Source: a virus
DNA: 64,000 bases
Strand: one strand, 5' to 3'
Virus record (IMG/VR): IMGVR_UViG_3300045684_000009
Span: 1-64,000 of that record
Below are positions 4,333 through 39,997 of the stretch, piece after piece. A program made the translations under genes and the position numbers. The notes under the pieces are model-generated. The model was not told the origin of the DNA, searched no databases, and saw nothing but the letters and a program-made list of their open reading frames with translations. The first letter of the stretch is position 1; each line of letters begins with the position of its first letter.

Positions 4333-5090
4333 TCATAAGGACCTAACTGTCCTCCTTTTGATTTATTTAAACAATTGTATAAAGGATTATCTTTATAAAA
4401 CTTTATCATCTTTGTTTCCAAACTACAGGCATTGTTAACTTCTAAATATGGAGTCAGTTGAATAAATTGCCCTAATCTTTTTATTTTAGATATTTCAGGT
4501 CTACGATGTCGTCTCTTATCAATGTTGTAGGTTATACCTACGTATCTTTTATTAACGTGTTTTATTAGGTAGACACATCTTTTAAACCTATTTCCTACTT
4601 TTTTCATGTGCGAACATACTTCATCTAAAATACCTCGTCGAGACGCTGCAATATATGCAGCTCCATTTTTTAACTTAAATTCTGTTCTAGTATTATATTT
4701 TAAAGCTTCTTGTTGTATCATTTGATTTGTCCATTTAACAATACCAACCATGTGTGCGCATGCTTTTTCATATATTCCAAACTTTACAGCAGCAGCAACT
4801 GCCCCGCCAAATCTCTTCTTAAATTCAGTCCTAGTCTTACATTTTCTAGCCTCTTTTAATATTTCATCTTTTGTCCAATCAGAATGGTAATGGGGAGACA
4901 TGTGATGACAAACATCATTAAGTATACCTAACCGAATTGCCGCACTATATGCAGACCTATAATTTCTTTGAAATTCATATCTAGATTGACATCTAGAAGC
5001 AACTTCTCGTATAAGGTGTGGTAACCATTTAACTCTAGCGTCCCCATTATCGTACATCGTCTGTATCGCTTGTATTGCTTTTTGTTTCAT
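4317..5090 (-). CDS. homing-endonuclease-like protein: three ~45-aa repeats plus C-terminal GIY-YIG domain
   Basis: repeats WT.E.I..EA.K..TRTEFK....A..AA...GI....C.HM; VYLIK..YVGIT..R..E..N motif. Confidence 0.75.
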   Translation of the reverse strand: MKQKAIQAIQTMYDNGDARVKWLPHLIREVASRCQSRYEFQRNYRSAYSAAIRLGILNDVCHHMSPHYHSDWTKDEILKEARKCKTRTEFKKRFGGAVAAAVKFGIYEKACAHMVGIVKWTNQMIQQEALKYNTRTEFKLKNGAAYIAASRRGILDEVCSHMKKVGNRFKRCVYLIKHVNKRYVGITYNIDKRRHRRPEISKIKRLGQFIQLTPYLEVNNACSLETKMIKFYKDNPLYNCLNKSKGGQLGPYDCINT

Positions 5091-5452
5091 TATTCTTTTA
5101 ATTTAGTAGTGTGTGGGAAGTAATAATCATACGAACCTTTGTCAAAGTGTTTTAATAGTTGGGGTACATAACTAAACTTTAATCTAAAGTAGTCTCCTAT
5201 TATTCCTTTTTCTATAGAACCTTGTTCCGCCCCCAAATAAGCTTTATTGACTTCTTTTCTAGTGTACATCTCTTTACCGTCATAATACTTACATTGAGTA
5301 GCTGAGAAATATTGTGGACTTACTTCGCAAGTACCTATAAGGCTTAAATTCTCTCGTTGCGGTTGTTCAACTCTGTAATAATGTTTCTCTGTAAACTTAC
5401 CATTGTCGTCACTACCTTTGTATTCGTATATGTAATGTTTATTCTTCTTCAT
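5090..5452 (-). CDS. hypothetical protein
   Basis: 120-aa ORF in operon. Confidence 0.7.
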   Translation of the reverse strand: MKKNKHYIYEYKGSDDNGKFTEKHYYRVEQPQRENLSLIGTCEVSPQYFSATQCKYYDGKEMYTRKEVNKAYLGAEQGSIEKGIIGDYFRLKFSYVPQLLKHFDKGSYDYYFPHTTKLKE

Positions 5453-5627
5453 CTATATACCGCTTGATTACTAAACCTTCATCTTTTAACTTCCCAACCA
5501 TAGATGATACGTAGTATTTACCATCTTTATCCCAATCCCCCACAAATGTAGGAAAATAATCTAACAAAGTGTCGGACTCTAATAGTCGCATGTACTCTAT
5601 TTTATATTGATCTTTAGTCTTCGTCAT
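5439..5627 (-). CDS. hypothetical protein
   Basis: 62-aa ORF in operon. Confidence 0.6.
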   Translation of the reverse strand: MTKTKDQYKIEYMRLLESDTLLDYFPTFVGDWDKDGKYYVSSMVGKLKDEGLVIKRYIDEEE

Positions 5628-5629
5628 GG

Positions 5630-5881
5630 CTACTTCATATCTACGTATACGGTCTCAATGTGGTCAGTCGCTGTACCCATGTCGTGGTCACCTCTTATTA
5701 CAGTTGCAAATCTTATACTCTTTACTTCCTCTCCTGTTTCTGTTTCGACTGCCGCTTTTATAAGTTCAATTACGTCTTTTTCTGTAAGTTCTATTTTTTT
5801 ATTTATCTTCATTAGTCTGTGTTTTGGTACAATTAATCCAAATTTATATTTATGTTTCCAAGAGTACCCCCAGTTATCCAT
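5630..5881 (-). CDS. hypothetical protein
   Basis: 83-aa ORF; true start may be internal MKINKK. Confidence 0.6.
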   Translation of the reverse strand: MDNWGYSWKHKYKFGLIVPKHRLMKINKKIELTEKDVIELIKAAVETETGEEVKSIRFATVIRGDHDMGTATDHIETVYVDMK

Positions 5882-6269
5882 CTAAATTCATTGTTGGATG
5901 AAATTCAAATAATAACTCTCCTGCCACAAATACATAACACCTAAACGATGCTGTCGGTATGTGTGTACCTGGAAGTAAAACAGAGTGAATCATCATATTG
6001 TCAAGCTGAGGATTGTAGTTAACATCAATAACAGTATTAGTTACTAAATGACGATAACCTTGGTTATATGGTTCTTCAATCCAAGAGGTGTTAGAATTCT
6101 CCATATTATCCTGTATAAGCTTAAGACCACCTTGTCCAGTTACTATGTATAAATGTAATGGTGACGGTATCTTATCGAACACCTCTGCTCTCACATGTTC
6201 TATCATGAACGATAATGCATCATTCATTTTAGTGGCGTTGTATTTAATTATTCGTTTATTCATCTTCAC
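5874..6269 (-). CDS. stand-alone paralog of major capsid protein residues ~310-444 (probable A-domain)
   Basis: FDKI..LYIVTGQGGLKLIQD vs MCP FDRI..LVLYTGQAGLKLFHD; LDNMMIHSVLLPGTHIPTASFRCYVF vs LDNTRINTVTYPNSHYPVSSYEFYAF. Confidence 0.8.
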   Translation of the reverse strand: MKMNKRIIKYNATKMNDALSFMIEHVRAEVFDKIPSPLHLYIVTGQGGLKLIQDNMENSNTSWIEEPYNQGYRHLVTNTVIDVNYNPQLDNMMIHSVLLPGTHIPTASFRCYVFVAGELLFEFHPTMNLDG

Positions 6270-6567
6270 ATATTTGATCTATATATCCCAAAGGAGATAT
6301 TCCAGGACCTAATGTTATAATATTTTTAAACTTATCATCTGTTATGATCGAATCGCTTGGGTGTACTGCGCCACCAAAAGGTAAGTCAGCTTCCTTTATA
6401 CCATTGTTCCAATCTGCGTTCCTATTTGCATGCTCTGAGATAGGTTCTACAAGAAATAATCTACCTCCTTTCTTTACATAAAATGTTCCGTACTTACTCA
6501 TATTTTTCATTTTTAAATCTACAATCATGTTCGTAGCCCTGAATCCACCCCTTCCCAATTGAGCCAA
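6256..6567 (-). CDS. conserved hypothetical protein (true start probably MKNMSKYG)
   Basis: VEPI...W...G..H.SDSIIT...FKNI..L..G.SP..YI pattern; operon packing. Confidence 0.6.
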   Translation of the reverse strand: MAQLGRGGFRATNMIVDLKMKNMSKYGTFYVKKGGRLFLVEPISEHANRNADWNNGIKEADLPFGGAVHPSDSIITDDKFKNIITLGPGISPLGYIDQICEDE

Positions 6568-6730
6568 AAGTTAACTTATATATCCAACGTTTCCACCACC
6601 TATGTATTACAGGCTTGGGGTTACTCAATACTACAATGTTTTCGTTAAGTATATCATTAGTATTAAACCAATCACAATTCAACCTTAGTATAAAATGTCC
6701 TTTTTTATCCACAGTAATCAATTTCTCCAC
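6494..6730 (-). CDS. small protein resembling MCP residues ~119-163
   Basis: FILRLNCDWFNTNDIL..IVVLSNPKPV..GYEH vs MCP FLIRLDVDWFGPYDVL..VVVESEPKFV..AYEY. Confidence 0.6.
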   Translation of the reverse strand: MEKLITVDKKGHFILRLNCDWFNTNDILNENIVVLSNPKPVIHRWWKRWIYKLTFGSIGKGWIQGYEHDCRFKNEKYE

Positions 6731-7436
6731 CGCATAATGCTTTGTGGTAGTTTATTAATAATTCCTCTCCTTCTTCTATTCGTCTTGTGGTGGCGAACAC
6801 AGCAAAACAACCTTTATCAATTAACATAATATTATCATCCTCAGAGTGATTGACCCACCCTCCCAAAGAAGTCCTGATTAAACCTCCAGGATGATACTGC
6901 TCTATATAATCACCTTGACCATGTATCATCTCAGTACAGTATAGATTAATGTGAGACGGTCCTATTACAAAGTCCTTATCCAAACCTATTGTAGCGAATA
7001 CACCGTTGCCATGTATTGATGAACTTTTAAGTACTAACCCGTGGTGTAACGGAGAGAATGTGTAATTTGGTGGTAACTCCTTTTGCGCACTTGTTTCCTT
7101 AGACTTAGATTCAGGAGGAGGTATCAGTTCACCAATCAATTCCCAATATAAATCTTCTTTTAAATATTCAACAGGAATAGCTTCTACCAAGCAATCATCA
7201 TTGAGCATTACAACTTCGTGTCGAAACCCTTCATCACCAACTTCTATTGGGTAATCTTGCACAATCACTCGACAATACTTATTCACAACAGGTGCTATCA
7301 CATCGTTAGGTTTAAACTTCTTACTCTTAAAACTAATTAAAAAGCTGACTCCATCCTTTCCATAAGCTTGTTGGTCAGGATTGGGGTTAGTTGAAATTAG
7401 TGCACGCTTGTTATTTTTCATCATCTCCATTTTCAA
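6705..7436 (-). CDS. MCP-insertion-domain / SET-domain methyltransferase fusion
   Basis: N-terminal ~87 aa align to MCP 100-186 (PVEYLKE identical); C-terminal SET motifs IHGNGVFA, VNHS, EELLINY. Confidence 0.88.
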   Translation of the reverse strand: MKMEMMKNNKRALISTNPNPDQQAYGKDGVSFLISFKSKKFKPNDVIAPVVNKYCRVIVQDYPIEVGDEGFRHEVVMLNDDCLVEAIPVEYLKEDLYWELIGELIPPPESKSKETSAQKELPPNYTFSPLHHGLVLKSSSIHGNGVFATIGLDKDFVIGPSHINLYCTEMIHGQGDYIEQYHPGGLIRTSLGGWVNHSEDDNIMLIDKGCFAVFATTRRIEEGEELLINYHKALCGGEIDYCG

Positions 7437-7713
7437 AAAACTGCTTTAATCTAATCATGTCTAATCCTATAAAGTCAGCAACTATCTTTTTATCTTCTTC
7501 GTTATAAACAACGAATCTAGGAACTGATCTAACTCTAACTTTTTCAGCGACAGCTTTGTAAGGGTAATCATCTGCGTCTGTGTCTACAAACTCATAAAGA
7601 TCGATAGAAGGGTCGTAGGTATCTTCTATGAATTTTTTAGCTCTCTTACATGGCCCGCACCACGTCGTACTAAACTGTATTAATTTATTCTTCTTCTCCA
7701 TATTGTTCTTCAT
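7411..7713 (-). CDS. trxA: thioredoxin
   Basis: WCGPC active site and cis-Pro VRSVP motif. Confidence 0.9.
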   Translation of the reverse strand: MKNNMEKKNKLIQFSTTWCGPCKRAKKFIEDTYDPSIDLYEFVDTDADDYPYKAVAEKVRVRSVPRFVVYNEEDKKIVADFIGLDMIRLKQFFENGDDEK

Positions 7714-7861
7714 ATTGTTTCTTAATCAAAGCCTTTTGATTAGCTATCATCTGTTTTCGTTTAGCTATTTCGACATTCTTTAATTCTTTGAAGATGTTAT
7801 ATCTTTTATTTCTAGCTTGAATGTCTTTAACTTTTGTCTTTCTTCCTTTACTTTTTGGCAT
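7685..7861 (-). CDS. small basic protein (58 aa, not in ORF track)
   Basis: MPKSKGRKTKVKDIQARNKR...QYGEEE fills the gap between ClpP-like and thioredoxin genes. Confidence 0.6.
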   Translation of the reverse strand: MPKSKGRKTKVKDIQARNKRYNIFKELKNVEIAKRKQMIANQKALIKKQYEEQYGEEE

Positions 7862-8366
7862 CTTTATAAAATATGTTTGGTTTTTTAAAATACTTCTTAA
7901 TATCAGTATAGCAAAATTCTACATCTTTACCTTTCTTAAATTCTTTCACTTTTTTCTTAGGTATATATCTATTTAAGAACTTAGATAATAGCTTATTAGT
8001 TTTTGCATCTATAACTTCCATATTGTCGTAAGATTTATTCTTTCGTTGACTGACTATCTGTCTACCTATTTTATGGAACATTATATAGTCTAATAACTCC
8101 TCTCTGATGACTATCTTACACTCTAAATGTTTGAACACTAAAATTGCAGCAGCAGAACAATTCTGGAATGTAGGAAATACATCGATTTTATCTTTTCTAG
8201 AGTTAATATAATCTGCTAATACATGCATAAATGGTATCTCGCCGCCAGGTGAAGAAAAGTATAAATTAATATACTGCCAATTAGCCATTTCATCAATTAG
8301 TACCGCTACTGTTTCGTTAGTAATAGTTTCATCAAAAATTATAGTGTGTACATAAGTCTCATTCAT
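7848..8366 (-). CDS. ClpP-like serine protease
   Basis: INLYFSSPGGE, CSAA (Ser), IMFH (His), GKDVEF (Asp). Confidence 0.75.
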   Translation of the reverse strand: MNETYVHTIIFDETITNETVAVLIDEMANWQYINLYFSSPGGEIPFMHVLADYINSRKDKIDVFPTFQNCSAAAILVFKHLECKIVIREELLDYIMFHKIGRQIVSQRKNKSYDNMEVIDAKTNKLLSKFLNRYIPKKKVKEFKKGKDVEFCYTDIKKYFKKPNIFYKDAKK

Positions 8367-8387
8367 CTACTTTAATTTAATTCATTA

Positions 8388-9131
8388 TTAATCTCTAAAC
8401 CCAAAGTTCTCATATAATTCAGATGTCGCATCTGATTTCCAAAACTCTTCAGTATCAACATTCATTATTGTAACATACCCATCGTATCCAGCTCCTGAAT
8501 CTATATTCCAAACATTCTTTCTTTTTTCAGGATATGAATACGATTGAGAATGTCCTATGAACACTTTATTATAAGGATTATCAGGATAAGCATTTGAACC
8601 TGCTTTATTCCAAAACTCTCTATTCCAATATAAATCTGACCCCCCATCCATTTGGAAAGATAAACTGTTTTCAATCTTATGTTGTTGATTCTTCCACCCA
8701 GCATGCACATAAGCGTTATTATCGTCGTCTATGTAATATTTTATAAGACTGTTTAAGAATGCGCTAAATATTGGTGGAGGGTATCCTCCGAACACTCTAT
8801 GATGTCCTACGAGGTTAGTACCTATACCCATAGATTCTAAAGTACTTTTACCGCCTTGATGATACCAAATATCTTCAATATTTATCCAATTCTCACTTAT
8901 AGCATCTAAAGCCCACGCATCGTGATTTCCTAATATACCTATCCAATTAGGTAAATTCATAAGATACTCCATGACAGGTAAGACCTCTATATGTGCGCCA
9001 CCATCTATGTAGTCACCTATAGTTATCAAACGATCTTGTGCAGGATCAAAAGGCGATCGCTCAATTGCTTGAACCATCCCTTTATAATTTCCATGAAGAT
9101 CTCCCATTACATATGTATCTCTAAAATTCAT
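8388..9131 (-). CDS. metallophosphoesterase (Ser/Thr protein phosphatase-like)
   Basis: GDLHG, GDYID, GNHD, VHAG, GHS, IDSG motifs. Confidence 0.9.
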   Translation of the reverse strand: MNFRDTYVMGDLHGNYKGMVQAIERSPFDPAQDRLITIGDYIDGGAHIEVLPVMEYLMNLPNWIGILGNHDAWALDAISENWINIEDIWYHQGGKSTLESMGIGTNLVGHHRVFGGYPPPIFSAFLNSLIKYYIDDDNNAYVHAGWKNQQHKIENSLSFQMDGGSDLYWNREFWNKAGSNAYPDNPYNKVFIGHSQSYSYPEKRKNVWNIDSGAGYDGYVTIMNVDTEEFWKSDATSELYENFGFRD

Positions 9132-9748: not shown

Positions 9749-9775
9749 ATTTTATATTGTTTAAGTTAATAATTG

Positions 9776-9848
9776 AAGCGGGGGAGGGACTCGAACCCTC
9801 GATCTCAAGGTTATGAGCCTTGTGAGTTACCATCTTCTCCACCCCGCT
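9776..9848 (-). tRNA. tRNA-Met(CAU), initiator-like
   Basis: cloverleaf AGCGGGG/CCCCGCT acceptor, CAAGG-CTCATAA-CCTTG anticodon arm, GAGGG-TTCGAGT-CCCTC T arm; CCA not encoded. Confidence 0.92.
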
Positions 9849-11557: not shown

Positions 11558-11808
11558 TCTTCTTCATCTTTAGAACGATGAGGGTCAATCAACTTACAAG
11601 CCTCTTCGTATGTATATCCGTACACCATCATTAAGTCATATGCCAAGTTTTGGTCGTAAAGAAGTTTAGAATAGTGCCACTCAATTTCGCTAATTATCAT
11701 ATTAGGGTTTTCTTTTCTGAACTTCTTTAAATCCTTGTGTTCTTGGGAGGCAGATCTTTTTCTGCCTCCATTTGGATTCATAAACCTATCAAAACCTTTC
11801 TTAGACAC
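11554..11808 (-). CDS. hypothetical protein
   Basis: 84-aa ORF in operon. Confidence 0.65.
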   Translation of the reverse strand: MSKKGFDRFMNPNGGRKRSASQEHKDLKKFRKENPNMIISEIEWHYSKLLYDQNLAYDLMMVYGYTYEEACKLIDPHRSKDEEE

Positions 11809-13285: not shown

Positions 13286-14167
13286 TTAACTATTCAACTC
13301 ATCAACTATATTAATCATTTCCTTAACTTCATCTCTTAAGTATTCAAATGTATACTGTTTAGCAGTGTTAACATCGTAATCTGTATAATGAGTTATAGAT
13401 AAGTTTCTAACTGTATATCCTGCTAACTCTAACAAGTAACAATACATACTTTGCTGTAGTTGATACTTTACCAATTTAGAAGCACTGAGGTGTTGGAATG
13501 GTTCGTTAAACTTATAATACGACTCTTTCTTGCCCAACTTCTTATTAGTCTTATGATCGTCTACATCTACATATCTCACACCATCTATTGTCTCAATAAA
13601 CGCTAAATCAATCTGACCAACTACATAAATATTATCGAACTTCCCCCAAACCAACAACTCAACATAACAACCATCTTCCAAATCATATAAATCATCTACT
13701 ATATTCTCGTTATCGAACGTCTTATCTACGATTATTACTTTTACTTCTTTCTGAGTGTGAGGGTTGATGGCCAGCTTACTTTTGTATAATTCATCCTCAA
13801 TCTCTTTGTGGAACTTTGTACCTAGTATTCCAGCATCTTTCCACTCTTGTTTAACTTCATTTTTAGCTTCAAAAAACTCATCAGGGTTCACGTAGTAACT
13901 TAACTTATCGAAAAAAGTTCTTGGTGGCTTCATTATGAAAGGCATCTTCCATAAGTATATGGATTTCAAATAATCCTTCTTTAAGGCTTTAAGTTGATCT
14001 TCTCCTAATACTTTCTTAAAAGCACCATTTGTATGCCAATAGGGTTCATCCATAGGTTCAGAAAACTGACTTATCAGAGTCGTAACAGATATCCCCTGGC
14101 TCTGTTCTATCCAATAAGTGTGATCTTCTTCTTTAAATATTATACTGGGTGTCCCCTTTTTTATCAT
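13286..14167 (-). CDS. PD-(D/E)XK exonuclease
   Basis: SVTTLI, GTKFH, GQIDL, DHKTN, YQLQQSMY. Confidence 0.85.
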   Translation of the reverse strand: MIKKGTPSIIFKEEDHTYWIEQSQGISVTTLISQFSEPMDEPYWHTNGAFKKVLGEDQLKALKKDYLKSIYLWKMPFIMKPPRTFFDKLSYYVNPDEFFEAKNEVKQEWKDAGILGTKFHKEIEDELYKSKLAINPHTQKEVKVIIVDKTFDNENIVDDLYDLEDGCYVELLVWGKFDNIYVVGQIDLAFIETIDGVRYVDVDDHKTNKKLGKKESYYKFNEPFQHLSASKLVKYQLQQSMYCYLLELAGYTVRNLSITHYTDYDVNTAKQYTFEYLRDEVKEMINIVDELNS

Positions 14168-17977: not shown

Positions 17978-18529
17978 ATGAGTAAGTTAAAATTAAGTGA
18001 CATATATTGTCATGTTCGGCAACCAAGGTATCCTAAGAACTTTTGGAAACTTAATCAAGAGTTGTCTAATATAGAACCTTTCTCTACGTTTAAGAAAACA
18101 AGAGATAGTGCTAGTATTATGTTAGCCATCTTTATGGTATACGATCCTAAGTCACAACTTGTGAACTCAGGTTTGTCATTGGAGGACATGAAGAAAGATA
18201 TTGCTGTAAACTTTTTAGAAAAACCTAAATTTGTTTGGTCGGACTACTCTGAGATTATTAATGCGTACAACGATATATCAAAAACTAAAATAGAAAAAGA
18301 ACTTGACAGTTGGTACGAACAACTACAGGAAAGAAAAGAATATTTAGACACATTAGATTGGAACGAAGACCCAGATTTAAAAGAAGGAATGCTGTTAGAC
18401 ACTGATAAGCATTTCGAGAAGTATCAAAACATAGTAAGTGCACTGAAAGAAGAGAGACAGGAGAGATTAATGAAAGGTGGTTATTTACCTTCTTTATTGG
18501 AACTGTGGGCGTTAGAACACGAAGAGTAA
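17978..18529 (+). CDS. terminase-adjacent protein (possible small terminase)
   Basis: 183 aa, helical, stop overlaps TerL ATG; synteny only. Confidence 0.5.
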   Translation: MSKLKLSDIYCHVRQPRYPKNFWKLNQELSNIEPFSTFKKTRDSASIMLAIFMVYDPKSQLVNSGLSLEDMKKDIAVNFLEKPKFVWSDYSEIINAYNDISKTKIEKELDSWYEQLQERKEYLDTLDWNEDPDLKEGMLLDTDKHFEKYQNIVSALKEERQERLMKGGYLPSLLELWALEHEE

Positions 18530-20955
18530 TGAAAGGTAATTGGGAAATACAAACTAAGAGTAATAGTATAGATGGTGCATCGATGGTTAAGTTCGATCAC
18601 TCTATTAGGAAGTTGAAAGTAGGTGATTATGTGGATTACGATTTGTTTCCATATGACATAAAGAATAGATCTAAGTTTTTAATGCATGAGAATCACCCTA
18701 AAAGTCTAAACCCCAGTTCGTTTACTTATAAAAAGTATTGGGAAGATTTTACTATAAAGTGTCTTGAAGGGATGTGGGTGTACGACGAAGGTACTTGGGT
18801 TTACATGATGCCTGAGCTTTTTTATTATATAAACTACACTAAGATAACGGGTAATGCGGATGGTGACGAAGAAGACAGGTCATTTATATCCCCCGATTTA
18901 TCTTCAACTGAGTGGGTTATATTTTCATACATATATGCAGGAGACAGATTTAGTGGTTTCGAGTTAGATGATAAATACACTTGTCACAGGTATGTTGAAT
19001 CAATGTATAACGGTAATGAAATTAATAAATATGATTTAGCAAAAGTAAAAGATACTATTTATCAAAAGAATGGTCAATTGAAAGTGTTTGTAGACCCTTG
19101 GGAATATTTGACTAGATTCTATTTAATAGATAATCCAAGAGGTAATTTAGGAGCACCTTTATATAAAAATCAATTCGAAGATTCATGTATAACGGGTTCG
19201 AGGGGTGTAGCAAAGAGTTATTGTATATATGGTGGTAAATTCCCGCACTCTTGGTCGTTCGGTACAGTAAGAACTAAAGATAAAATACATGAGTGCTGTA
19301 GTAAGAACTTATTTGCAATGGGTTGCGGGCAAAAAGATCCACTAAACAGGTCATTAAAGATAATAAAGGCTTTTTATGATGCGCAACCAGGTCAATATTC
19401 ATTCCCAGACCCTAAAAGACCTAAACATAGAGGGCCGCTTTATAAACGAGTTCAAGGTAATTGGGAGGCGGGTTCAGAGATTGAACATGTAATTAAAGAA
19501 AAGAATGATTCCAAGGCTCTGGTAGGTTCGTCGTTACAAATGAACGTTATAACACCAGATAGGAAAAGAATAGCGGCTGGTGACCGTTTTTTAGGTTTAA
19601 TGTTTGAAGAGGGAGGTTTCTTATCATACCTTCCTGAAGTGTGGGCTGCTAATAGAAACTCGATGGAAGTTAGTGGTGTCAAAGTAGGTAGAGCGTTTGT
19701 TACAGGTACTTCGGGTGATTTGGTGGGTGTAGAGGGTATTAAGAAGCTTATGGAAAATCCGAGAGCTTATAAGATAACTCCTATACCTAATTATTGGAAG
19801 AATCCTGACAAAGAAATAGGTTTGTTTTTGTCAAACTTATACGCGTATCGTAAGTATAAAGACCCACAAGGTAATAGTGATTTAATTGAGGCGTTAAAAC
19901 ATATAGCTGGTAATCGAATAAGGAATTCTGAAACTATGGATTCTCAACAGTTCGATGATTTCATATTATATGAACCTATACACCCAGACGAGATGTTGAG
20001 ACCCAATAAGCGGTCAATACTTCCAGGAAAACAGGCGCAAGAAAGATTAAGTGATATAGATGCTTTTGGATATTACGACTTGAATGCTACAGTTGGTACA
20101 TTTAAGTTTGATAATTCTCAGAAGTACGGTGTAGATTTTGTAAAAGACAATAGTTTAACACCTATTCACGATTACAACATAGATAGGAATAGAATAAAGC
20201 TAGAAGGTGCTGCAGTTGTTTATGAGCACCCAGACGGATACATTCCCGAAAACTTATATTGGGTTATATTTGACCCAGTATCTAAACCAGGCAGGGGTGA
20301 GAGTTTAGATGCATCTTTAAACTCAATTATAGTTTATAAATGGATGTATACAGGACAAAGTAATACGTTAGAAGATAGTATTGTGGCGGAATGGATAGGA
20401 AGGTTAGATAGTTTAGAAGATACTTATGAAATAGTTGTGAAAATGGCTAAGTACTTTAACGCTAAGATATTCCCAGAAACAAATACACCAGGTTTTGTAG
20501 CTTGGTGTAATACTAATTCGTACTCTCACATGTTGCAGAGTGAGGCGGTGATAGCTATAAAAGAGCTGTACCCGAACTACAAACAAAAACTAGGAAAAGT
20601 AGGATTTTCAATATATGGTGAAAAGCTAAAACCTTGGTTGTTATTACGACTGAGACAATGGCTCTTAACCAAAAGAGGATTAGATGAGGACACTGGTGCG
20701 TTCGATTGTTACAATATAGACACCATATTATCTAAACGACTATTAAATGAAATAGTTAATTTTAATGAGGGGGGTAACTTTGACCATATTTCGTCAATGT
20801 TAGGTCTCATGCTTTTAAGAACTCAATTAACAGGCGAACCTCCTAACATAGAGGACGAATCTGTAAGCAATTTAAACATTGGTCAACCGAAGTTTAAAGA
20901 GTTAAAATCTCGGAGAAAGAGAAGGAGTTCTTTTGAGGAAACTTCATACATGTAA
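18505..20955 (+). CDS. terL: terminase large subunit (likely start 18529)
   Basis: Walker A-like GSRGVAKS, Walker B MFEEGG, GTSGD coupling motif, nuclease FDP...ETN...NFDHISS; crAss-like N-terminus. Confidence 0.93.
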   Translation: MGVRTRRVMKGNWEIQTKSNSIDGASMVKFDHSIRKLKVGDYVDYDLFPYDIKNRSKFLMHENHPKSLNPSSFTYKKYWEDFTIKCLEGMWVYDEGTWVYMMPELFYYINYTKITGNADGDEEDRSFISPDLSSTEWVIFSYIYAGDRFSGFELDDKYTCHRYVESMYNGNEINKYDLAKVKDTIYQKNGQLKVFVDPWEYLTRFYLIDNPRGNLGAPLYKNQFEDSCITGSRGVAKSYCIYGGKFPHSWSFGTVRTKDKIHECCSKNLFAMGCGQKDPLNRSLKIIKAFYDAQPGQYSFPDPKRPKHRGPLYKRVQGNWEAGSEIEHVIKEKNDSKALVGSSLQMNVITPDRKRIAAGDRFLGLMFEEGGFLSYLPEVWAANRNSMEVSGVKVGRAFVTGTSGDLVGVEGIKKLMENPRAYKITPIPNYWKNPDKEIGLFLSNLYAYRKYKDPQGNSDLIEALKHIAGNRIRNSETMDSQQFDDFILYEPIHPDEMLRPNKRSILPGKQAQERLSDIDAFGYYDLNATVGTFKFDNSQKYGVDFVKDNSLTPIHDYNIDRNRIKLEGAAVVYEHPDGYIPENLYWVIFDPVSKPGRGESLDASLNSIIVYKWMYTGQSNTLEDSIVAEWIGRLDSLEDTYEIVVKMAKYFNAKIFPETNTPGFVAWCNTNSYSHMLQSEAVIAIKELYPNYKQKLGKVGFSIYGEKLKPWLLLRLRQWLLTKRGLDEDTGAFDCYNIDTILSKRLLNEIVNFNEGGNFDHISSMLGLMLLRTQLTGEPPNIEDESVSNLNIGQPKFKELKSRRKRRSSFEETSYM

Positions 20956-20965
20956 AGTTTAAACA

Positions 20966-23470
20966 ATGGGTATTTTCAGAAGTCAATATAATTACGACAA
21001 GGATGGATATAAAGCCAGACTTACTAGAAAACAGAAAGAAAAATCTAATTTTTCTGCGATGTTGGACAGGATGGATTGGTACGATATAGGGCAGTTCAGT
21101 GATTTTAGAGATAAGAATAGAATAAAGAAATTCAACATAAATTATGGATTAATGGAAGGCATCTTGGATGTTGAACTCTATGATGATCCATTGTGTTTCG
21201 AAGTGGGCGGTCAAGAAGTAAGTTTCGATTATCAATCTGTGTCTCATTATCCTTTAATATCTCAGGTCGCTAAAACCGTAATAGGTGAAGAATCTAGTAA
21301 GGTGTTTAAACCTATGATTAAAGATAACACACCAGAAAAGCAAACATATTTTAAGAAAGAAGCTGCAAGTAGAATAGACTCATATCTTTCTGCACTTTTA
21401 AATCAGAGTAGACAGACCATAACTCAAAACTTATTAAAACAGTCGGGGATTGAAGACCCTTACAGTCTCAGCCCTGAGCAACAAATGGAGCTACAAAAAG
21501 AAGTAGAGAACCAGATGTTAAAAGAGAGTCCAGAGTCTATAGTAGATTTTATGAAGTATGATTTCCAAACTCCTACGGCGAAGCAAGCTCAAAAGATGTT
21601 GGATTACCTTGTAGAATATCATGACATCAAGTTTAAGAACACTTTAGGATTCAAACATGCTGTATGTACTGCAGAAGAATATTATTATGAAGGTGCTAGA
21701 AACGGTGAGTTAGTATTCGAAGAAGTGTCCCCTATGTACTTTAATTGGGGTGGTTCTTTAGGTGTAGAGTGGTCACAACACGGAACGTGGGCTAAAAGAG
21801 AGAAGTGGTTGACGTATCAAGATGTCACACAGAGACACGCTATGCATTTAAGTGAAAGAGACTTAAAAGACTTAGACTTTTATCATGAACCTTTTGGTGG
21901 GTTTTCTGGGCAGGATATATTTGATACTCCTTACCACAGAAAGATGCAATACGAGTATGGGAAAAATCCAGAGTGGCAAAAGAAATACGGAGACATAAAT
22001 ATAAAGACTAAAGAAGGACAGAGACAAATGCTCGACATGTATTCTGAAGTGTACGATCGCGATTTGTTTGGACATAAAGATGAAAGTAGCATAATAGGTT
22101 CTCAAACTTTTGGAATTAGAGAAGCACACATAGTGTGGCGAGACAAACGAATATTAAAGAAAGTAAAAAGAATAGTAAACGACGAATTAAAGACATTTTA
22201 CTTAGATGAGTTCTATGAAGACAGACCAGAAGACTTTGAAGTAGAAAAGATATGGGTTGATGAGATTTGGGAGGGGTATAAGTTAGGAACATATGAAGCA
22301 AAATATGTGAACGTAAGACCTATACCTTATCAATATAAATCTTTAGATAACCCTTTCGATGTTGACTTACCTTATTACGGTAAGAGATATAATGTGAACA
22401 ACGACATAACAAAGAATGTATCTTTGGTAGATTTAGGTAAGACATTTAATAAAGATTTCGATATAACTATGTCTAGTTTAAAACACGACATGGCTACCAA
22501 TCACGGTAAGAAATTATTAATTACATTAAACGCTAAACCTGAAGAATACAGCATGCAAGAGTGGATGGATTTGATTAGAAATAGTCCTTTCATCCCTGTA
22601 GATTTCTCTAAGAAAGGTTTGAATCAGTTAGATTTCCAATTTTCGAAAGAAGTTGATTTGAGCAAGATGTCTGACATAGCTGGTAAGATTAACATGTTAC
22701 AACTATTTAGAGATGGCGTGGCGTGGTCTATGTATTTCAGTAACTCGAGACTCGGTTCTCAAGGCCAGTACGCAAATACTACAAACATACAAAGCAGTCA
22801 AGAGGCGTCTTACAATCAAACGGCTCTATTTAGTGAACAACATAGGTTGGTTATGGAAAAAGCTCTCCAAGCGTTCCTAAACTATGCTAGATTCTATTAT
22901 AAGGATAACTTAGATAAAGCTAAAGTATTCTTAGATGATGTGTCGTTAGCCGAGTTAGCTACAGGTCCGTACACTTCGTATAATAGAATGGGAGTTAGTT
23001 TAAGTAATTCTGCAGCAGAAATACAAAAGTTATCAATATTGAAACAACAAGCTTTAACATTGATTCAGAACGGTAGCAATCCTGAAAGTGTATTGAAGAT
23101 GATATTAGCAGATTCTGAAACAGAAGTTCAAGAGTTAATTAGAAAAGAATCTAAGAATATAGAGATGCAAAGAGCAGAAAATATTAAAATTCAACAAGAT
23201 CAATTTAATGCGACTATGCAACAGCAACAACAAGCCGCCGCAGAGAAACTTCAGATGGAATATAAGATGCACCAAGAGAAGCTTCAAAACAATACGCAGA
23301 ATACTATAATCGATAGTCAGAAGTTTGCTAACCAACAAGATATTGATAAAAATGGTCAAAACGATCTTTTAACTGGTAAACTTGTTGAAATAGATTCTAA
23401 ACTTAAGATGCATAATGACAAAATGCTCTTAGAGAAGGAAAAGTTAGAACTTCAACGTAAATTAAAATAA
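20966..23470 (+). CDS. portal protein
   Basis: 834 aa directly after TerL, HYPLI and WEG motifs, Q-rich C-terminal coil; crAss-like synteny. Confidence 0.88.
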   Translation: MGIFRSQYNYDKDGYKARLTRKQKEKSNFSAMLDRMDWYDIGQFSDFRDKNRIKKFNINYGLMEGILDVELYDDPLCFEVGGQEVSFDYQSVSHYPLISQVAKTVIGEESSKVFKPMIKDNTPEKQTYFKKEAASRIDSYLSALLNQSRQTITQNLLKQSGIEDPYSLSPEQQMELQKEVENQMLKESPESIVDFMKYDFQTPTAKQAQKMLDYLVEYHDIKFKNTLGFKHAVCTAEEYYYEGARNGELVFEEVSPMYFNWGGSLGVEWSQHGTWAKREKWLTYQDVTQRHAMHLSERDLKDLDFYHEPFGGFSGQDIFDTPYHRKMQYEYGKNPEWQKKYGDINIKTKEGQRQMLDMYSEVYDRDLFGHKDESSIIGSQTFGIREAHIVWRDKRILKKVKRIVNDELKTFYLDEFYEDRPEDFEVEKIWVDEIWEGYKLGTYEAKYVNVRPIPYQYKSLDNPFDVDLPYYGKRYNVNNDITKNVSLVDLGKTFNKDFDITMSSLKHDMATNHGKKLLITLNAKPEEYSMQEWMDLIRNSPFIPVDFSKKGLNQLDFQFSKEVDLSKMSDIAGKINMLQLFRDGVAWSMYFSNSRLGSQGQYANTTNIQSSQEASYNQTALFSEQHRLVMEKALQAFLNYARFYYKDNLDKAKVFLDDVSLAELATGPYTSYNRMGVSLSNSAAEIQKLSILKQQALTLIQNGSNPESVLKMILADSETEVQELIRKESKNIEMQRAENIKIQQDQFNATMQQQQQAAAEKLQMEYKMHQEKLQNNTQNTIIDSQKFANQQDIDKNGQNDLLTGKLVEIDSKLKMHNDKMLLEKEKLELQRKLK

Positions 23471-24921: not shown

Positions 24922-26484
24922 ATGATAGGTAGACATCCTTTCCCTAGTAAATTTATAATCAACGAAGAACAAGCAGGAGCAGAAAAATACTACTCTAAGA
25001 AATTCGATCATGAAGATTTACTTTTAGCATTTGGCGATCACATAAATGATTATACTGACTTAACTCAGTATGCGAAGAATTTATACAATACGTATAGTGT
25101 TACTTTATCCGACACGCACACTCTTTCTCCTTTCTATGATATGTTAGTGGGAACAGGTGGTCGTATTGATACACACGATAACTTCCTTAGATGGAGGATT
25201 TATTCAAAACCAGATAGGCGAGCATTGTCATTAGGTAATCCTAATGATGAAGATGCTTGTTATGGTGCTGACCAGATTACATTCTTGATAAGACTTGACG
25301 TAGATTGGTTTGGTCCATACGATGTTCTTGCACCTCTAGATAATAAGAGATGTCAAGTTGTTGTTGAATCTGAACCTAAATTTGTTGGTGGTGCTTACGA
25401 GTACGAAGTAACATTGTTAGAGAATCCAGAGAATGCAGCTACTTTCCCTGTAGAATATTTGAAAGAAAGTAACTACTTTATTAAACTTATCTCTTTAGGA
25501 TCTGATATAGGTTCAAACGAGAAAGGTACATTACAATTCGGTTTCGATTATTCGTATATCGAGTTTGAAACTACTATGACGACTGCCCAATGGGGATTCG
25601 AGGTAGATAAAGAAGCTCATGAGAAATGGGGTAACCTTGAGATCGCAAGATGCAATGATGACGGTAGACCTGTACCAGGTTCTGCTAAAATCACAAACTT
25701 CCTTGAGATTGAAGGTATGGCTCAGATTGATTATGAAAAAGAGCTTTGGTTAGCGTATGGTACTCAGACTGATTACCGAACTGCTAAATCGACAGGAAAT
25801 AGAATTACAACAGGTCCAGGTTTGTTTGAATTCTTAGAAGAGTCGAATGTTATACCTTACAACCCTAGAGCAAACGGTATTGACAGAATGATTAATGAAA
25901 TCGATGCCATATGGTTCGATAGAATTGCACCAGGAAAGAGAAAATTAGTTCTCTATACAGGTCAAGCTGGGTTGAAGTTATTCCATGATTGGATTGAAGA
26001 GAAATATGGAAATACTGTTGTTGTTACTCCTCACGATTTCGTATTGGGAGAAGGAGCACCAATTAATAACGCTAACGGGAAAGAATATTCTTACGGCGGA
26101 CAGTATTTGTTTACAAAATATAAATTACCAGTGTTTGGTGAAATTAGTGTAGCTCACTGGGAGTTCTTGGATAATACAAGAATTAACACAGTTACATATC
26201 CTAACTCACATTACCCTGTAAGTTCTTACGAATTCTATGCATTTGACATTGGATTTGGAGAGCCTAACGTTAAACTTCTTTATGATTCTAAAGAAGAGAA
26301 TACGTGGATTATGCCAGGATTGTGGTCACCGTTTGGTCCTACGACTTCTAAAAACCCTGTTTACAAACAACCATCAGGAGATAATCCGAAGTGGGGATAT
26401 GATTGGTTTCATAGATGTAAATTCGGATTAGTGATGATGGATCCAAAACGAGCGTTAGTATTTAAACCGAACATTACACAGTAA
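24922..26484 (+). CDS. major capsid protein (HK97 fold, crAss-like)
   Basis: 520 aa after scaffold; E.ELWLAYG, GPGLFEFLE, YTGQAG motifs; followed by terminator. Confidence 0.88.
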   Translation: MIGRHPFPSKFIINEEQAGAEKYYSKKFDHEDLLLAFGDHINDYTDLTQYAKNLYNTYSVTLSDTHTLSPFYDMLVGTGGRIDTHDNFLRWRIYSKPDRRALSLGNPNDEDACYGADQITFLIRLDVDWFGPYDVLAPLDNKRCQVVVESEPKFVGGAYEYEVTLLENPENAATFPVEYLKESNYFIKLISLGSDIGSNEKGTLQFGFDYSYIEFETTMTTAQWGFEVDKEAHEKWGNLEIARCNDDGRPVPGSAKITNFLEIEGMAQIDYEKELWLAYGTQTDYRTAKSTGNRITTGPGLFEFLEESNVIPYNPRANGIDRMINEIDAIWFDRIAPGKRKLVLYTGQAGLKLFHDWIEEKYGNTVVVTPHDFVLGEGAPINNANGKEYSYGGQYLFTKYKLPVFGEISVAHWEFLDNTRINTVTYPNSHYPVSSYEFYAFDIGFGEPNVKLLYDSKEENTWIMPGLWSPFGPTTSKNPVYKQPSGDNPKWGYDWFHRCKFGLVMMDPKRALVFKPNITQ

Positions 26485-26597: not shown

Positions 26598-27614
26598 ATG
26601 TCAAGTACACCAGATATTAGAATACTACAAAGACTGTCAGAAGGTTTAGGTAGTATAAAAGGTATTAGAGGTTCTGTTAGAGAATATGGAACGAATTCAG
26701 TAAATAGACAAGAAGACGGTGTAGATTTGGGAGGTTTTAAATCCAGGTCTTTACACGGAGCTAAACAATATTTACAACTTTGGTGGTCTAAATTAGATGA
26801 CGCATGGTATTGGGGGTCTACAGATCAAGAGCTTCAAGAGATGGTTACTAAATTAAGACTAAAAGGTAATAAGGGTTCACCCGAAGCAGGTAAAATTATT
26901 ACTTCTGCTGATAGGTACGATTTCGATGACCCATTTTTTAACAATGAATTCTGGTATGGCAGACGATGGATGGAGGGCGGTAGAGTCGTATTCAACATCG
27001 TAAAACCCGAAGATAATGTTTTTTATTTAGCTTATAAAGCTAACAGAGATGTCATTGATAGGTCTAATGAAGATCAAAACAGTGTATTTACTGCAGGTGC
27101 TCGATTTGAGTTAATTTCTCCTAGAATTGCTGCGGCTAAAAAAGCCACAGAATATAAAACAGAAGCAGATGCTACTGTTGCATTAGTCAGTATGACTTTT
27201 GAGAAAAGAAAACTTATTGCTGAGATTATGCAGTTAAGCAAAGTTGATTGGAAACAGATTGATCCTGACAGATTGTTGGTCAACATGATGGATGAAATAG
27301 TCAAGGAAGGTGATAAAGCAGTGAAAAGATATGGAGGTAAAACTTCATTAGCATATTTTAATGCCCTCGTTTCTTTAGATGACGCTTCTCTATACTTGAG
27401 ACATAAAGTCGTTCAAGCTAAGAAGAAAGGGATTTTAAGAAATAAAGGAAATCACTGGCAGTTTAATACTGGCACGTCAAACTTACCTGACAAAATAAAC
27501 GTCGCAATAAATGATGCAGCTCTTGTTAAATTCTTCGAAGACGATGTTAACTCTGATTACTATGTGGAGTTAGTTCACCAACTAGAACAGCGAGAGAAGT
27601 CAAAAACTAAATAA
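26598..27614 (+). CDS. conserved crAss-like protein downstream of MCP
   Basis: 338 aa, synteny with crAss-like head module. Confidence 0.7.
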   Translation: MSSTPDIRILQRLSEGLGSIKGIRGSVREYGTNSVNRQEDGVDLGGFKSRSLHGAKQYLQLWWSKLDDAWYWGSTDQELQEMVTKLRLKGNKGSPEAGKIITSADRYDFDDPFFNNEFWYGRRWMEGGRVVFNIVKPEDNVFYLAYKANRDVIDRSNEDQNSVFTAGARFELISPRIAAAKKATEYKTEADATVALVSMTFEKRKLIAEIMQLSKVDWKQIDPDRLLVNMMDEIVKEGDKAVKRYGGKTSLAYFNALVSLDDASLYLRHKVVQAKKKGILRNKGNHWQFNTGTSNLPDKINVAINDAALVKFFEDDVNSDYYVELVHQLEQREKSKTK

Positions 27615-38068: not shown

Positions 38069-39997
38069 ATGGCTTTAAAAGACAAAATAGTATTATTAGC
38101 TCAGGAGATAGCGGCGGACGTTAAGACATTATTAGCACACGCTGCCAATACTTCAAACCCACATTCAGTAGATAAAACTGATGTAGGTTTAGGTAATGTT
38201 CCAAATGTGGATGCGACAGATGTAGACAATCACAGTAGTGGAACTACTAATAAAGTGTATACGGCTGCCGAACAGACTAAAGTGGGATTTATCAGCGTAA
38301 CGCAGGCAGTAGACCTGGATGCAATGGAATCTGACATAGCTACTAATACAGCTAAAGTAGGAGTAACCACTGAGATATCAGATGTAGTTGAAGATTTAAC
38401 ACCACAATTAGGTGGAGATTTAGATCCAAATGGATTTGGAATAGGAGCTACTAGAGAGCTTTTAACTTTTGTCGAAGATGCTTCTGCAGTAAATCATTTA
38501 GAAATAGAAAATGAAGCTACAGGAGGTGGACCAATATTAAGAGCAACGGGTGATGACGCAGATGTAGACCTTACTTTAGAGACCAAAGGTGATGGTAGAA
38601 TAAATTTAGCTGACCATGTTTATGTAAAGGATTCAAGGGCTATAACAGCAGCAGATTCATCTGCATTAAATATTGATGCAGATTGGACAGGAGTTGGTGG
38701 GAGTTTTTATCGTAAAGGAGTTTTTTTAGATCTTAATTCTACTGGGTCAAATGCAAATGTTCTTGGACTAGATTTTAATTATAATGTAACAGGAACAAAC
38801 AGTAAAGGGGAGTTTATACGAGGGGTTGCAAGTAATAATGGTAGATTGGGATCAACAATGGTTGATTTATCTACTACAAATACTGAAATACTTTTCACAT
38901 CCTATAGTACATACTTTAACAAACAAGTCCAAAATTGGACAGGAATTACAAATAGCGATAGGTATAACCAAAAAGTGTACGGGTTATATAATGAGATAAA
39001 TGTAGATACAGCTTGGAACTCTGCGGCCAACGTAAATAAGCCTGAGTTCTATGGTTTGTGGAGTCAGATAGACACTCCTAGTTCTACTAACACAACTGAG
39101 TATGGTTTGTACCTAAATTCAGTAAATGGAGGGACAGATGATTTTGGAGTATATTCTTTAGGAAATGGTGCTAACATTTTTGAGGGTAATGTAGGTATAG
39201 GCAGGTTAACCGCAAGCTACCCATTGCACGTACAAGGATGGATAGTTAATGCTCAAGATGGTATACGAACTAGAACAGGAACTGCAGCAGAGCCTGCTCA
39301 TGGGTTTATTGATGATATTGATATGGGTATGTACCGTATTACTACGAATACAATAGGGTTCAGTACAGGAGCTGCTGAAAGAATGAGTATCAATGGATCA
39401 GGGGATGTAAAGGTATCTACAGGAAATTTAGGTATAGGGAGAGATCCTACAGAAACCTTAGATGTATACGCCAGTAGTCATGCTACATTAAAATTAGAAT
39501 CTGATACAGGGGATGCTATATTAACCTTAAATTCTAATAATGGTAGTGGAGACCAACCTGAAATATGGTTCAGAAGAAATTCAGGAGCAACAATGACGTT
39601 TAGAACGTTAGCTGCTTCAGATGACACAGAATTAACTACTTTTTCAAATACTCAAGAGTTACAACTACAAACTAGTGGAGGATTAACTAGTATGGGAGGA
39701 GGAGTTGCTTACACAACTACTACAAGTGCAGCAGGAAATTACACAGTTTTAGTAACTGATAAAGTAATATTTAAATCAGGAATAACTGGCGGAGGAGATA
39801 CAGTAACATTACCTAGTGGAGCTGCCACTGGACAAGTGTTTATAATAAAAGATAGTGGAGGAAACGCAAGTACAGATTCTATAACTATAGCTACTGCAGG
39901 TGCAGAAACTATAGATGGCGTTAGTACATACTCTATAAGACAAGATTATCAAAGTGTTACTGTTATTTTCGATGGTACAAATTATAATATAATATAA
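38069..39997 (+). CDS. tail fibre protein
   Basis: NPHSVDKTDVGLGNV, TPQLGGDLD, GNVGIG repeats, TVTLP...IIKD...ETIDG C-terminal module. Confidence 0.8.
   Translation: MALKDKIVLLAQEIAADVKTLLAHAANTSNPHSVDKTDVGLGNVPNVDATDVDNHSSGTTNKVYTAAEQTKVGFISVTQAVDLDAMESDIATNTAKVGVTTEISDVVEDLTPQLGGDLDPNGFGIGATRELLTFVEDASAVNHLEIENEATGGGPILRATGDDADVDLTLETKGDGRINLADHVYVKDSRAITAADSSALNIDADWTGVGGSFYRKGVFLDLNSTGSNANVLGLDFNYNVTGTNSKGEFIRGVASNNGRLGSTMVDLSTTNTEILFTSYSTYFNKQVQNWTGITNSDRYNQKVYGLYNEINVDTAWNSAANVNKPEFYGLWSQIDTPSSTNTTEYGLYLNSVNGGTDDFGVYSLGNGANIFEGNVGIGRLTASYPLHVQGWIVNAQDGIRTRTGTAAEPAHGFIDDIDMGMYRITTNTIGFSTGAAERMSINGSGDVKVSTGNLGIGRDPTETLDVYASSHATLKLESDTGDAILTLNSNNGSGDQPEIWFRRNSGATMTFRTLAASDDTELTTFSNTQELQLQTSGGLTSMGGGVAYTTTTSAAGNYTVLVTDKVIFKSGITGGGDTVTLPSGAATGQVFIIKDSGGNASTDSITIATAGAETIDGVSTYSIRQDYQSVTVIFDGTNYNII

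Follow-up and report, generated by a model that had tools for sequence, protein, structure and literature searches.

A probable stand-alone paralogue of the capsid A-domain in a divergent crAss-like phage

Introduction

HK97-fold capsid proteins are the commonest building block of viruses. The locus described here raises the question of what use a phage may have for one domain of such a protein when it is encoded apart from the capsid gene. The window under study, 64,000 nucleotides in length, is the first 64 kb of the 133,828-bp virus record IMGVR_UViG_3300045684_000009 of IMG/VR, which has direct terminal repeats and a GC content of 35%. [quoted passage not shown] The two genes are located as follows:

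5874..6269, minus strand: ORF131, 131 codons when begun at the GTG at 6269; paralogue of the MCP A-domain, encoded on its own
24922-26484, plus strand: MCP, 520 amino acids (aa), parent of the copied segments

Almost certainly, ORF131 has its own gene and folds as a paralogue of the MCP's axial (A) domain, and of that domain only. The evidence is given below, together with the functions that may be envisaged for the protein.

Similarity of ORF131 to the major capsid protein

The likelier start of ORF131 is the ATG at 6263, which overlaps the upstream stop codon as ATGAATAA and sets the length of the protein at 129 aa (P0001). Residues 7-117 align with MCP residues 310-444 in BLASTP (28% identity, E 4e-10). 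The original prediction, made from the letters of the DNA, had pointed to four motif strings common to the two proteins and to the removal of a loop of about 25-30 aa. All four strings are found in both proteins in this alignment, and the size of the loop was about right: the ORF131 segment spans 111 residues versus 135 in the MCP, a net shortening of 24, with 36 MCP and 8 ORF131 residues standing opposite gaps. Among the stretches retained in ORF131 is TGQ.GLKL..D, at the start of helix 2.

The Smith-Waterman score of the pair (104) is reached by none of 1000 shuffled sequences. ORF131 is retrieved at E 6e-7 when the MCP is compared by tblastn to the whole window, and the two proteins pair at E 1.6e-7 in an all-versus-all BLASTP of the 391 ORFs of the genome. 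A profile of 37 MCPs matches ORF131 both in hhalign (E 1.6e-11, probability 97.4) and in HMMER (E 9e-10). Judged on these sequence comparisons, the match is beyond chance. The partner protein matches Pfam Crass_capsid (E 5.6e-36), phrog_11589, denominated major head protein (E 2.3e-33), and phicrAss001 gp32 (PDB 7qof; E 3.3e-25), and is by this token a genuine Crassvirales MCP. No family was found for ORF131 in Pfam, where the search was extended to E<=1, in NCBIfam, or among the defence proteins of PADLOC; PHROG returned only a weak match, to phrog_401 (E 0.19).

ORF131 has codon log-odds of +0.44 in frame versus -1.27 and -1.29 out of frame; the MCP and thioredoxin genes score +0.61 and +0.58, respectively. 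At an off-frame stop frequency of 11%, the chance of 131 codons staying open is about 1.8e-7. Positions 5600-7500 recur without a difference in another assembly of this DNA, at a word depth of about 20, and the frames are therefore not the product of an assembly slip; this assembly may be the source sample, and supports the assembly rather than an independent occurrence. The region 5000-8500 was also scanned for sigma-70 promoters and terminators, and is no richer in these than shuffled sequences.

A small family of ORF131 homologues

A HMMER search of 1.84 billion representative proteins retrieved seven sequences at E<=0.001, ORF131 itself included. Five are stand-alone homologues of 115-153 aa (P0087, E 4.7e-15; P0089-P0092, E 3.8e-6 to 8e-4), which show 27-33% identity, are similar to ORF131 in length, and share invariant motifs. 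The seventh, P0088 (1779 aa, E 1.5e-6), is a long repeat protein with six repeated stretches, and was set aside by eye as probably spurious. The profile of the resulting small family of six proteins matches the MCP profile over MCP residues 309-444 (E 1.6e-21, probability 99.4). None of the six reaches the gathering cut-off of Crass_capsid PF23898 (27 bits) or matches it at E<=0.1, the single closest member having E 0.17.

A tree was derived from 132 columns of the six small proteins and 37 MCPs (43 rows), and was rooted on the most distant MCP. The six proteins form one clade (support 99/99), with a stem of 1.26 and end branches of 0.83-1.62, versus a median of 0.21 over the 43 rows (MCPs mostly 0.04-0.8). 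The clade nests among the MCPs of this phage group, with moderate support (84-94) and the warning that attaches to long branches. Taken jointly with the identity of the A-domain, these data leave hardly any doubt that the family had a single origin, from an MCP of this phage group, with strong divergence thereafter. Branch lengths suggest that the small proteins may evolve faster. The original prediction also invoked selection for the module, and with this the five homologues (115-153 aa), their grouping in one clade and the gene-like codon usage all agree. ORF131 is a real, conserved gene and not a decaying relic.

In 23 related IMG/VR records, mostly fragments, of which the largest (121 kb) is about 80% complete, the small-family profile matches only the MCP itself (18 of 23). 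No family member was found by tblastn with ORF131, P0090 and P0089 in 50,697 deposited phage records, and no further ones in IMG/VR (searched with alignment A2), or in JGI metagenomes and GTDB genomes (both with alignment A4). A word-index protein search retrieved only ORF131 when queried with it, and four known proteins when queried with alignment A2. IMG/VR was similarly scanned for the MCP, and yielded no locus with a single-sequence query and 26 loci with alignment A1, from whose records the 23 above were drawn. On this distribution and these branch lengths ORF131 is sporadic among relatives, accessory and fast-changing.

Predicted fold

Two AlphaFold models of ORF131 were compared. Model 1, computed with an alignment of the small family and 37 MCPs, has a predicted local distance difference (pLDDT) score of 89.5 and a predicted template-modelling (pTM) score of 0.84. 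Model 2 was computed with the six small proteins only, with no MCP row to steer it (pLDDT 77.0, pTM 0.74), and features the secondary-structure elements of model 1 at nearly identical residues. The top Foldseek match of model 1 is 7qof_A, the gp32 chain (template-modelling score 0.63 by query), and a second-look alignment places the model on gp32 residues 295-504 (Z 13.5, root-mean-square deviation 3.0 A, 118 residues). Out of 48,161 representative chains, model 2 has as top match the same 7qof_A, over residues 294-504 (Z 10.6, root-mean-square deviation 3.9 A, 121 residues), which is the only chain with Z of at least 8. Among the best 50 matches listed for model 2, all but one are capsid or encapsulin shells by title, the exception being a de novo design. 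In other capsid proteins the match falls on the C-terminal half, which is where the A-domain is located.

That the matched MCP segment is the A-domain of an HK97 fold, as originally proposed, is thus borne out in both models, the further matches being to A-domain parts as well. The proposal would have been weakened by a fold unrelated to this MCP region; none was seen, and ORF131 is predicted to fold on its own. The predicted protein consists of a beta-sheet and two main helices superposable on solved capsid A-domains, and to this extent the models support the structural side of the A-domain interpretation.

Capsid protein gp32 is described as having an HK97 fold, composed of A- and P-domains, whose E-loop carries as an insertion the I-domain, a beta-barrel formed by residues 79-180 (PMC10172136). 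The complete fold is not found in ORF131, for which alignments cover only MCP residues 309-444 and, in those made by MAFFT and by structure, the C-terminal strand; on the latter falls, in both, the last hairpin strand of ORF131. As modelled, the protein looks like two A-domain sequence segments directly joined, with MCP residues ~445-505 taken out, and by analogy with the HK97 fold the removed part would be the P-domain. The models place the excision at the level of domains. N-arm, E-loop with I-domain, and P-domain with spine helix are all missing. Lacking every element that links capsomers, ORF131 cannot build a shell.

Ten positions are invariant in the six small proteins (T42, G43, G46, Q86, L87, D88, P103, S106, F112, G115), and turn motifs are common to the small family and MCPs (Y8, D30, T42, G43, G46, L87, D88, P98, P103, G115, P123). 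Structural turns are the best-conserved parts of the family, and helix 1 is almost free to vary; its mean BLOSUM score is 0.26 within the small family and 0.04 against MCPs, versus 2.37 among MCPs.

The small-family profile matches no chain among PDB sequences at E<=10. The ESM Atlas gave no usable match by features; the ORF131 model obtained there is poor (pLDDT 0.48), and its structure matches all have template-modelling scores below 0.42. The complex predicted for MCP and ORF131 scored 0.18 versus a mark of 0.32, a value that speaks neither for nor against binding.

MCP-derived sequences next to ORF131

The view of ORF131 as a stand-alone unit holds in that it is a separate gene, but it is not an isolated one: MCP-derived segments are found in four ORFs lying side by side, ORF131 among them. 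The neighbouring ORFs, including one of uncertain origin, are the following:

5630..5881, minus strand: ORF83, 83 aa, downstream of ORF131; first ~25 residues (~5875-5801) similar to the MCP C-terminal strand region 490-515
6256..6567, minus strand: ORF103, upstream of ORF131, 103 codons from a TTG; likely start ATG at 6501, 81 aa
6494..6730, minus strand: ORF78, 78 aa, probable second, partial and more diverged I-domain copy (MCP 120-155)
6705..7436, minus strand: ORF243, 243 aa; residues ~7-106, MCP I-domain copy (MCP 96-194); residues ~116-230, SET methyltransferase

Paralogous ORF pairs are few in the genome. Four were detected at E<=1e-3 in the all-versus-all comparison, and three of them connect the MCP with this 1.8-kb cluster.

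The clearest case beside ORF131 is ORF243, which matches the MCP in hhalign (E 6.1e-17, probability 98.8) and HMMER (E 4e-20), MCP residues 87-185 being found by tblastn at 7442-7146 (40% identity, E 1.6e-15). The copied segment corresponds to the I-domain through the alignment of MCP and gp32, and the SET moiety matches Pfam PF00856 above the cut-off (E 7.9e-6). In the same 23 related IMG/VR records only the I-domain of the MCP is matched (18 of 23), with no second copy and no SET match. On crAss001 capsids the I-domain is an exposed beta-barrel that meets the auxiliary protein; because of this, the enzyme carried by ORF243 may be aimed at a capsid partner or at a capsid sensor.

Two further copies are shorter. 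MCP residues 491-513 match positions 5872-5810 in ORF83 (tblastn, 52% identity over 23 residues, E 0.012), and MCP residues 121-153 match positions 6694-6614 in ORF78 (tblastn, E 0.11). For ORF83, hhalign gives E 1.9e-4 and probability 47, all-versus-all BLASTP gives E 4e-4, and a score of 69 is found in none of 1000 shuffles; for ORF78, hhalign gives E 4.9e-5 and probability 68, and a score of 57 is likewise found in none of 1000. In HMMER alone both are at chance level (ORF78, E 0.36; ORF83, E 0.38), and two unrelated ORFs score alike. The two were accepted as MCP-derived on the basis of hhalign, shuffles, BLAST and position. The remainder of ORF83 is an unrelated small domain, which matches phrog_13043 at residues 24-76 (E 9e-4). 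In ORF78 the I-domain segment is followed by a Trp/Arg-rich stretch. The unrelated ORFs mentioned above are at 73419-73724 (minus strand, beyond the window) and 13289-14167 (minus strand), and their weak matches to the I-domain region of the MCP profile (E 0.15 and 0.22) are probably due to chance.

ORF103 is not demonstrably derived from the MCP. Compared to the MCP profile it has E 0.12 and probability 0.5 in hhalign, which is not significant, and its best local match to MCP residues 186-309 is equalled by 112 of 1000 shuffles. It has no family in Pfam, NCBIfam or PADLOC; in PHROG the only match is a weak one (phrog_18691, E 0.16). By eye its C-terminus resembles MCP residues 293-309, and with this piece the whole cluster would be colinear with the MCP, but the resemblance was rejected as evidence on the same shuffles and hhalign probability.

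As it stands, the minus-strand cluster follows the order of the MCP in part, with I-domain, A-domain and C-terminal strand in succession; MCP regions 1-95, 195-309 and 445-489 have no copy in it. At three consecutive junctions the genes overlap by 8 bases (ATGnnTAA), namely at 6494-6501, where the likely start of ORF103 overlaps the preceding stop as ATGAGTAA, at 6256-6263, and at 5874-5881, where the start of ORF83 overlaps the stop of ORF131 as ATGGATAA. Overlaps of the same length are found elsewhere in the leftward block, as at 2897-2904 and 11801-11808, and the arrangement suggests that this genome makes a habit of translational coupling. That the frames of ORF131 and ORF83 would be fused by a +1 slip at the stop of ORF131 (GGA TAA C) is pure speculation.

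Gene blocks and relatives of the phage

ORF131 belongs to a block of non-structural genes transcribed leftwards, and is thus on the strand opposite to that of terminase, portal and MCP, which follow each other in this order on the plus strand from 18.5 kb:

18505-20955, plus strand: terminase large subunit (phrog_6681, E 1.7e-56)
20966-23470, plus strand: portal (phrog_6547, E 7.9e-54)

In the minus-strand block around ORF131, thioredoxin, metallophosphatase and VWA proteins score above Pfam cut-offs; GIY-YIG and ClpP-like matches are weak and below them. The block also encodes the SET domain, RNase H (E 6e-33) and an exonuclease, and a tRNA-Met (CAT) gene lies within it at 9775-9848 (minus strand). 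Among deposited crAss-like phages, identity to the MCP is 23-26% only; among uncultured relatives, known from contigs of 115-117 kb, it is up to 74% (P0002, 74%; P0005, 64%). The phage is therefore a divergent crAss-like phage.

A gene encoding a 338-aa protein lies immediately 3' of the MCP gene (26598-27614, plus strand). Its product matches no PHROG family at E<=0.001, and matches Pfam PG_1098_N weakly and below the cut-off (E 0.0047). In crAss001 the gene directly after that of the MCP is that of the capsid auxiliary protein.

Comparison with known proteins

With the A-domain of Crassvirales MCPs (gp32, 7QOF, PF23898) ORF131 shares homologous sequence, predicted fold and turn motifs. It differs in being limited to 129 aa, versus 520, and to one domain, and in being encoded in a non-structural block.

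Among described proteins, those nearest in architecture are the Family 4 or A-domain encapsulins (PF08967/DUF1884, PDB 2PK8), proteins of about 100 aa that are reported to consist of the HK97 A-domain only (PMC8346489, Andreas and Giessen 2021). According to the same source these proteins are cellular, are found in hyperthermophilic archaea and two Bacteroidetes genera, and are usually encoded downstream of an enzyme (hydrogenase, OsmC, GAPDH, DeoC); they are hypothesised to form pentameric facets, a complex with the operon enzyme has been reported, and the two main A-domain helices are named as the main contacts within the pentamer (PMC8346489). The small family (115-153 aa) has this A-domain-only architecture in common with Family 4. 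Family 4 genes, however, are cellular and sit next to an enzyme, whereas ORF131 is carried by a phage genome with terminal repeats and is found beside MCP-derived ORFs. PF08967 gives no match at E<=1 to any of the six members. 2PK8 is missing from the best 50 structural matches listed for either model, an absence from a list that does not amount to exclusion. The small proteins thus resemble Family 4 without being members of it, and judging from the tree they originated separately, from a Crassvirales MCP.

Other proteins offer partial parallels. T4 vs.8 is described as a stand-alone paralogue of the ATPase domain of the terminase large subunit, limited to certain phage taxa (PMC13601566, Evans et al. 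2026); like ORF131, it is a single domain of a virion-assembly protein found as a separate small phage gene, but the parent differs. SaPIbov5 Ccm (7RWZ, Z 5.1) and T4 gp24 (1YUE, Z 5.8-6.1) have A-domains that align with the ORF131 models. Both are MCP paralogues of HK97 descent, preserve the fold in full and become part of shells, whereas ORF131 retains one domain only. Ccm is reported to be an MCP homologue that redirects assembly (PMC8569155). In the articles covered by our literature search we found neither a phage-encoded MCP paralogue consisting of the A-domain alone nor the reuse of an MCP domain by domain. The cluster would be a case of such reuse of a duplicated capsid gene in Crassvirales, with the A-domain on its own and the I-domain fused to an enzyme.

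Possible functions of ORF131

It is now reported that immune receptors of bacteria recognise the A-domain by the face that forms capsomers, and ORF131 keeps exactly that domain. In particular, sensors of the STAND/Avs type are reported to grip the penton- and hexon-forming face. We infer, with a probability of about 35%, that ORF131 is a non-assembling mimic of the axial domain of the MCP, a bait that occupies whatever recognises this domain, most likely capsid sensors of the host. ORF131 would be transcribed with the leftward non-structural genes; the soluble protein would imitate the axial domain, and a factor recognising that domain would be occupied by it, the favoured targets being host sensors of monomeric MCP, such as those of the STAND/Avs type. 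The I-domain-SET protein ORF243 would be a second MCP-derived bait, carrying an enzyme. ORF131 is devoid of all parts that link the lattice, and can therefore only imitate, cap or bind. Variation of helix 1 with retention of the turns is what one would expect of a protein that alters its surface but preserves its fold, and the fusion of an I-domain to an enzyme in the same cluster supports the bait.

Several points weigh against this view. The long branches could equally reflect relaxed constraint, and an early timing of expression is suggested by gene content and strand only. No RNA dataset holding the ORF131 sequence was found. The five homologues are known from Logan/ENA contigs of 1.2-4 kb. 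The T4 protein vs.8 is described as toxic together with EcAvs2, and so as an activator rather than a blocker (PMC13601566). No MCP-derived decoy was found in the articles covered by our literature search.

The mimicry might also be wider, a spare capsid gene having been split into several baits (the A-domain, the I-domain-SET protein and the I-domain fragment) that would be expressed with the non-structural genes, would intercept host immune sensors of monomeric MCP and, through SET, would chemically modify them; we regard this extended form as unlikely.

The original prediction envisaged a module that could poison capsomers, and this is rather unlikely in our opinion. ORF131 would dock on the A-domains of MCPs in pentamers or hexamers under formation, whether these belong to the phage itself or to a relative that co-infects, capping, delaying or re-sizing the capsid, or would act as a holdase for MCP monomers. 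The A-domain is indeed described as forming the centres of capsomers in HK97-fold shells (PMC8346489; 10.64898/2026.01.04.697583), ORF131 descends from an MCP of this very phage group and retains TGQ.GLKL..D at the start of helix 2, and the SaPIbov5 Ccm protein (PMC8569155; 7rwz_A, Z 5.1) sets a precedent for an MCP homologue redirecting assembly. Helix 1, however, which is named as a pentamer-contact helix (PMC8346489), is unconstrained in the small family, and the gene lies apart from the structural module, on the opposite strand. We lean against docking on capsomers because of the divergence of helix 1 and the location among non-structural genes. ORF131 is moreover sporadic among relatives, unlike a core assembly factor, and the phage would itself be harmed by such a poison made ahead of its MCP. 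Equally on the unlikely side is that the fold was reused for a job unrelated to binders of the MCP, for example as a new surface for another phage or host protein, ancestry being mere history. Identity to the parent is only 28%, stem and branches are long, conservation is concentrated in the turns that hold the fold, and neither the weak phrog_401 match (E 0.19) nor Pfam, NCBIfam and PADLOC suggest a family, all of which would fit such a change of function. The presence of three more MCP-derived pieces in the same 1.8 kb is, on the other hand, hard to explain if the likeness to the MCP is irrelevant.

Assembly of ORF131 by itself, into an A-domain ring or small scaffold holding the product of a neighbouring gene, in the way put forward for Family 4, is quite unlikely, and so is the variant in which a two-piece A-domain is completed by the MCP-like N-terminus of ORF83. 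The architecture is that of Family 4 A-domain-only proteins as described (PMC8346489), and ORF83 does begin with a look-alike of the MCP C-terminal strand; yet PF08967 is unmatched at E<=1 in all six members, and in the models the sheet is closed by the C-terminal hairpin of ORF131 itself, aligned up to gp32 residue 504. Very unlikely is, finally, that the locus is non-functional debris of a duplicated MCP gene decaying into short frames. The partial colinearity of the pieces with the MCP on the minus strand and the loss of MCP 1-95, 195-309 and 445-489 are what decay might leave. Against this, homologues of similar length persist on other contigs with 27-33% identity and invariant motifs, 131 codons are open at an 11% off-frame stop frequency with gene-like codon usage, the excision respects a domain and the model is confident.

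In the extended form, if true, the baits would represent a new class of anti-defence, self-mimicry, directed against pattern recognition of the Avs kind. Either way ORF131 offers a direct test of whether phages turn copied domains of their structural proteins against sensing, and of whether an isolated A-domain is able to fold, oligomerise or interfere with assembly. Were it only a neutral leftover, it would still document that proteins limited to the A-domain have originated independently in a virus, in addition to the cellular Family 4 encapsulins.

A further repeated sequence

The sole paralogous pair of the genome that does not include the MCP is formed by the ORFs at 38069-39997 and 101090-101719, both on the plus strand, the latter beyond the window. 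The former encodes a fibre-like protein of 642 aa, of which the C-terminal ~100 residues are repeated in the 209-aa product of the latter (34% identity, E 1e-7).

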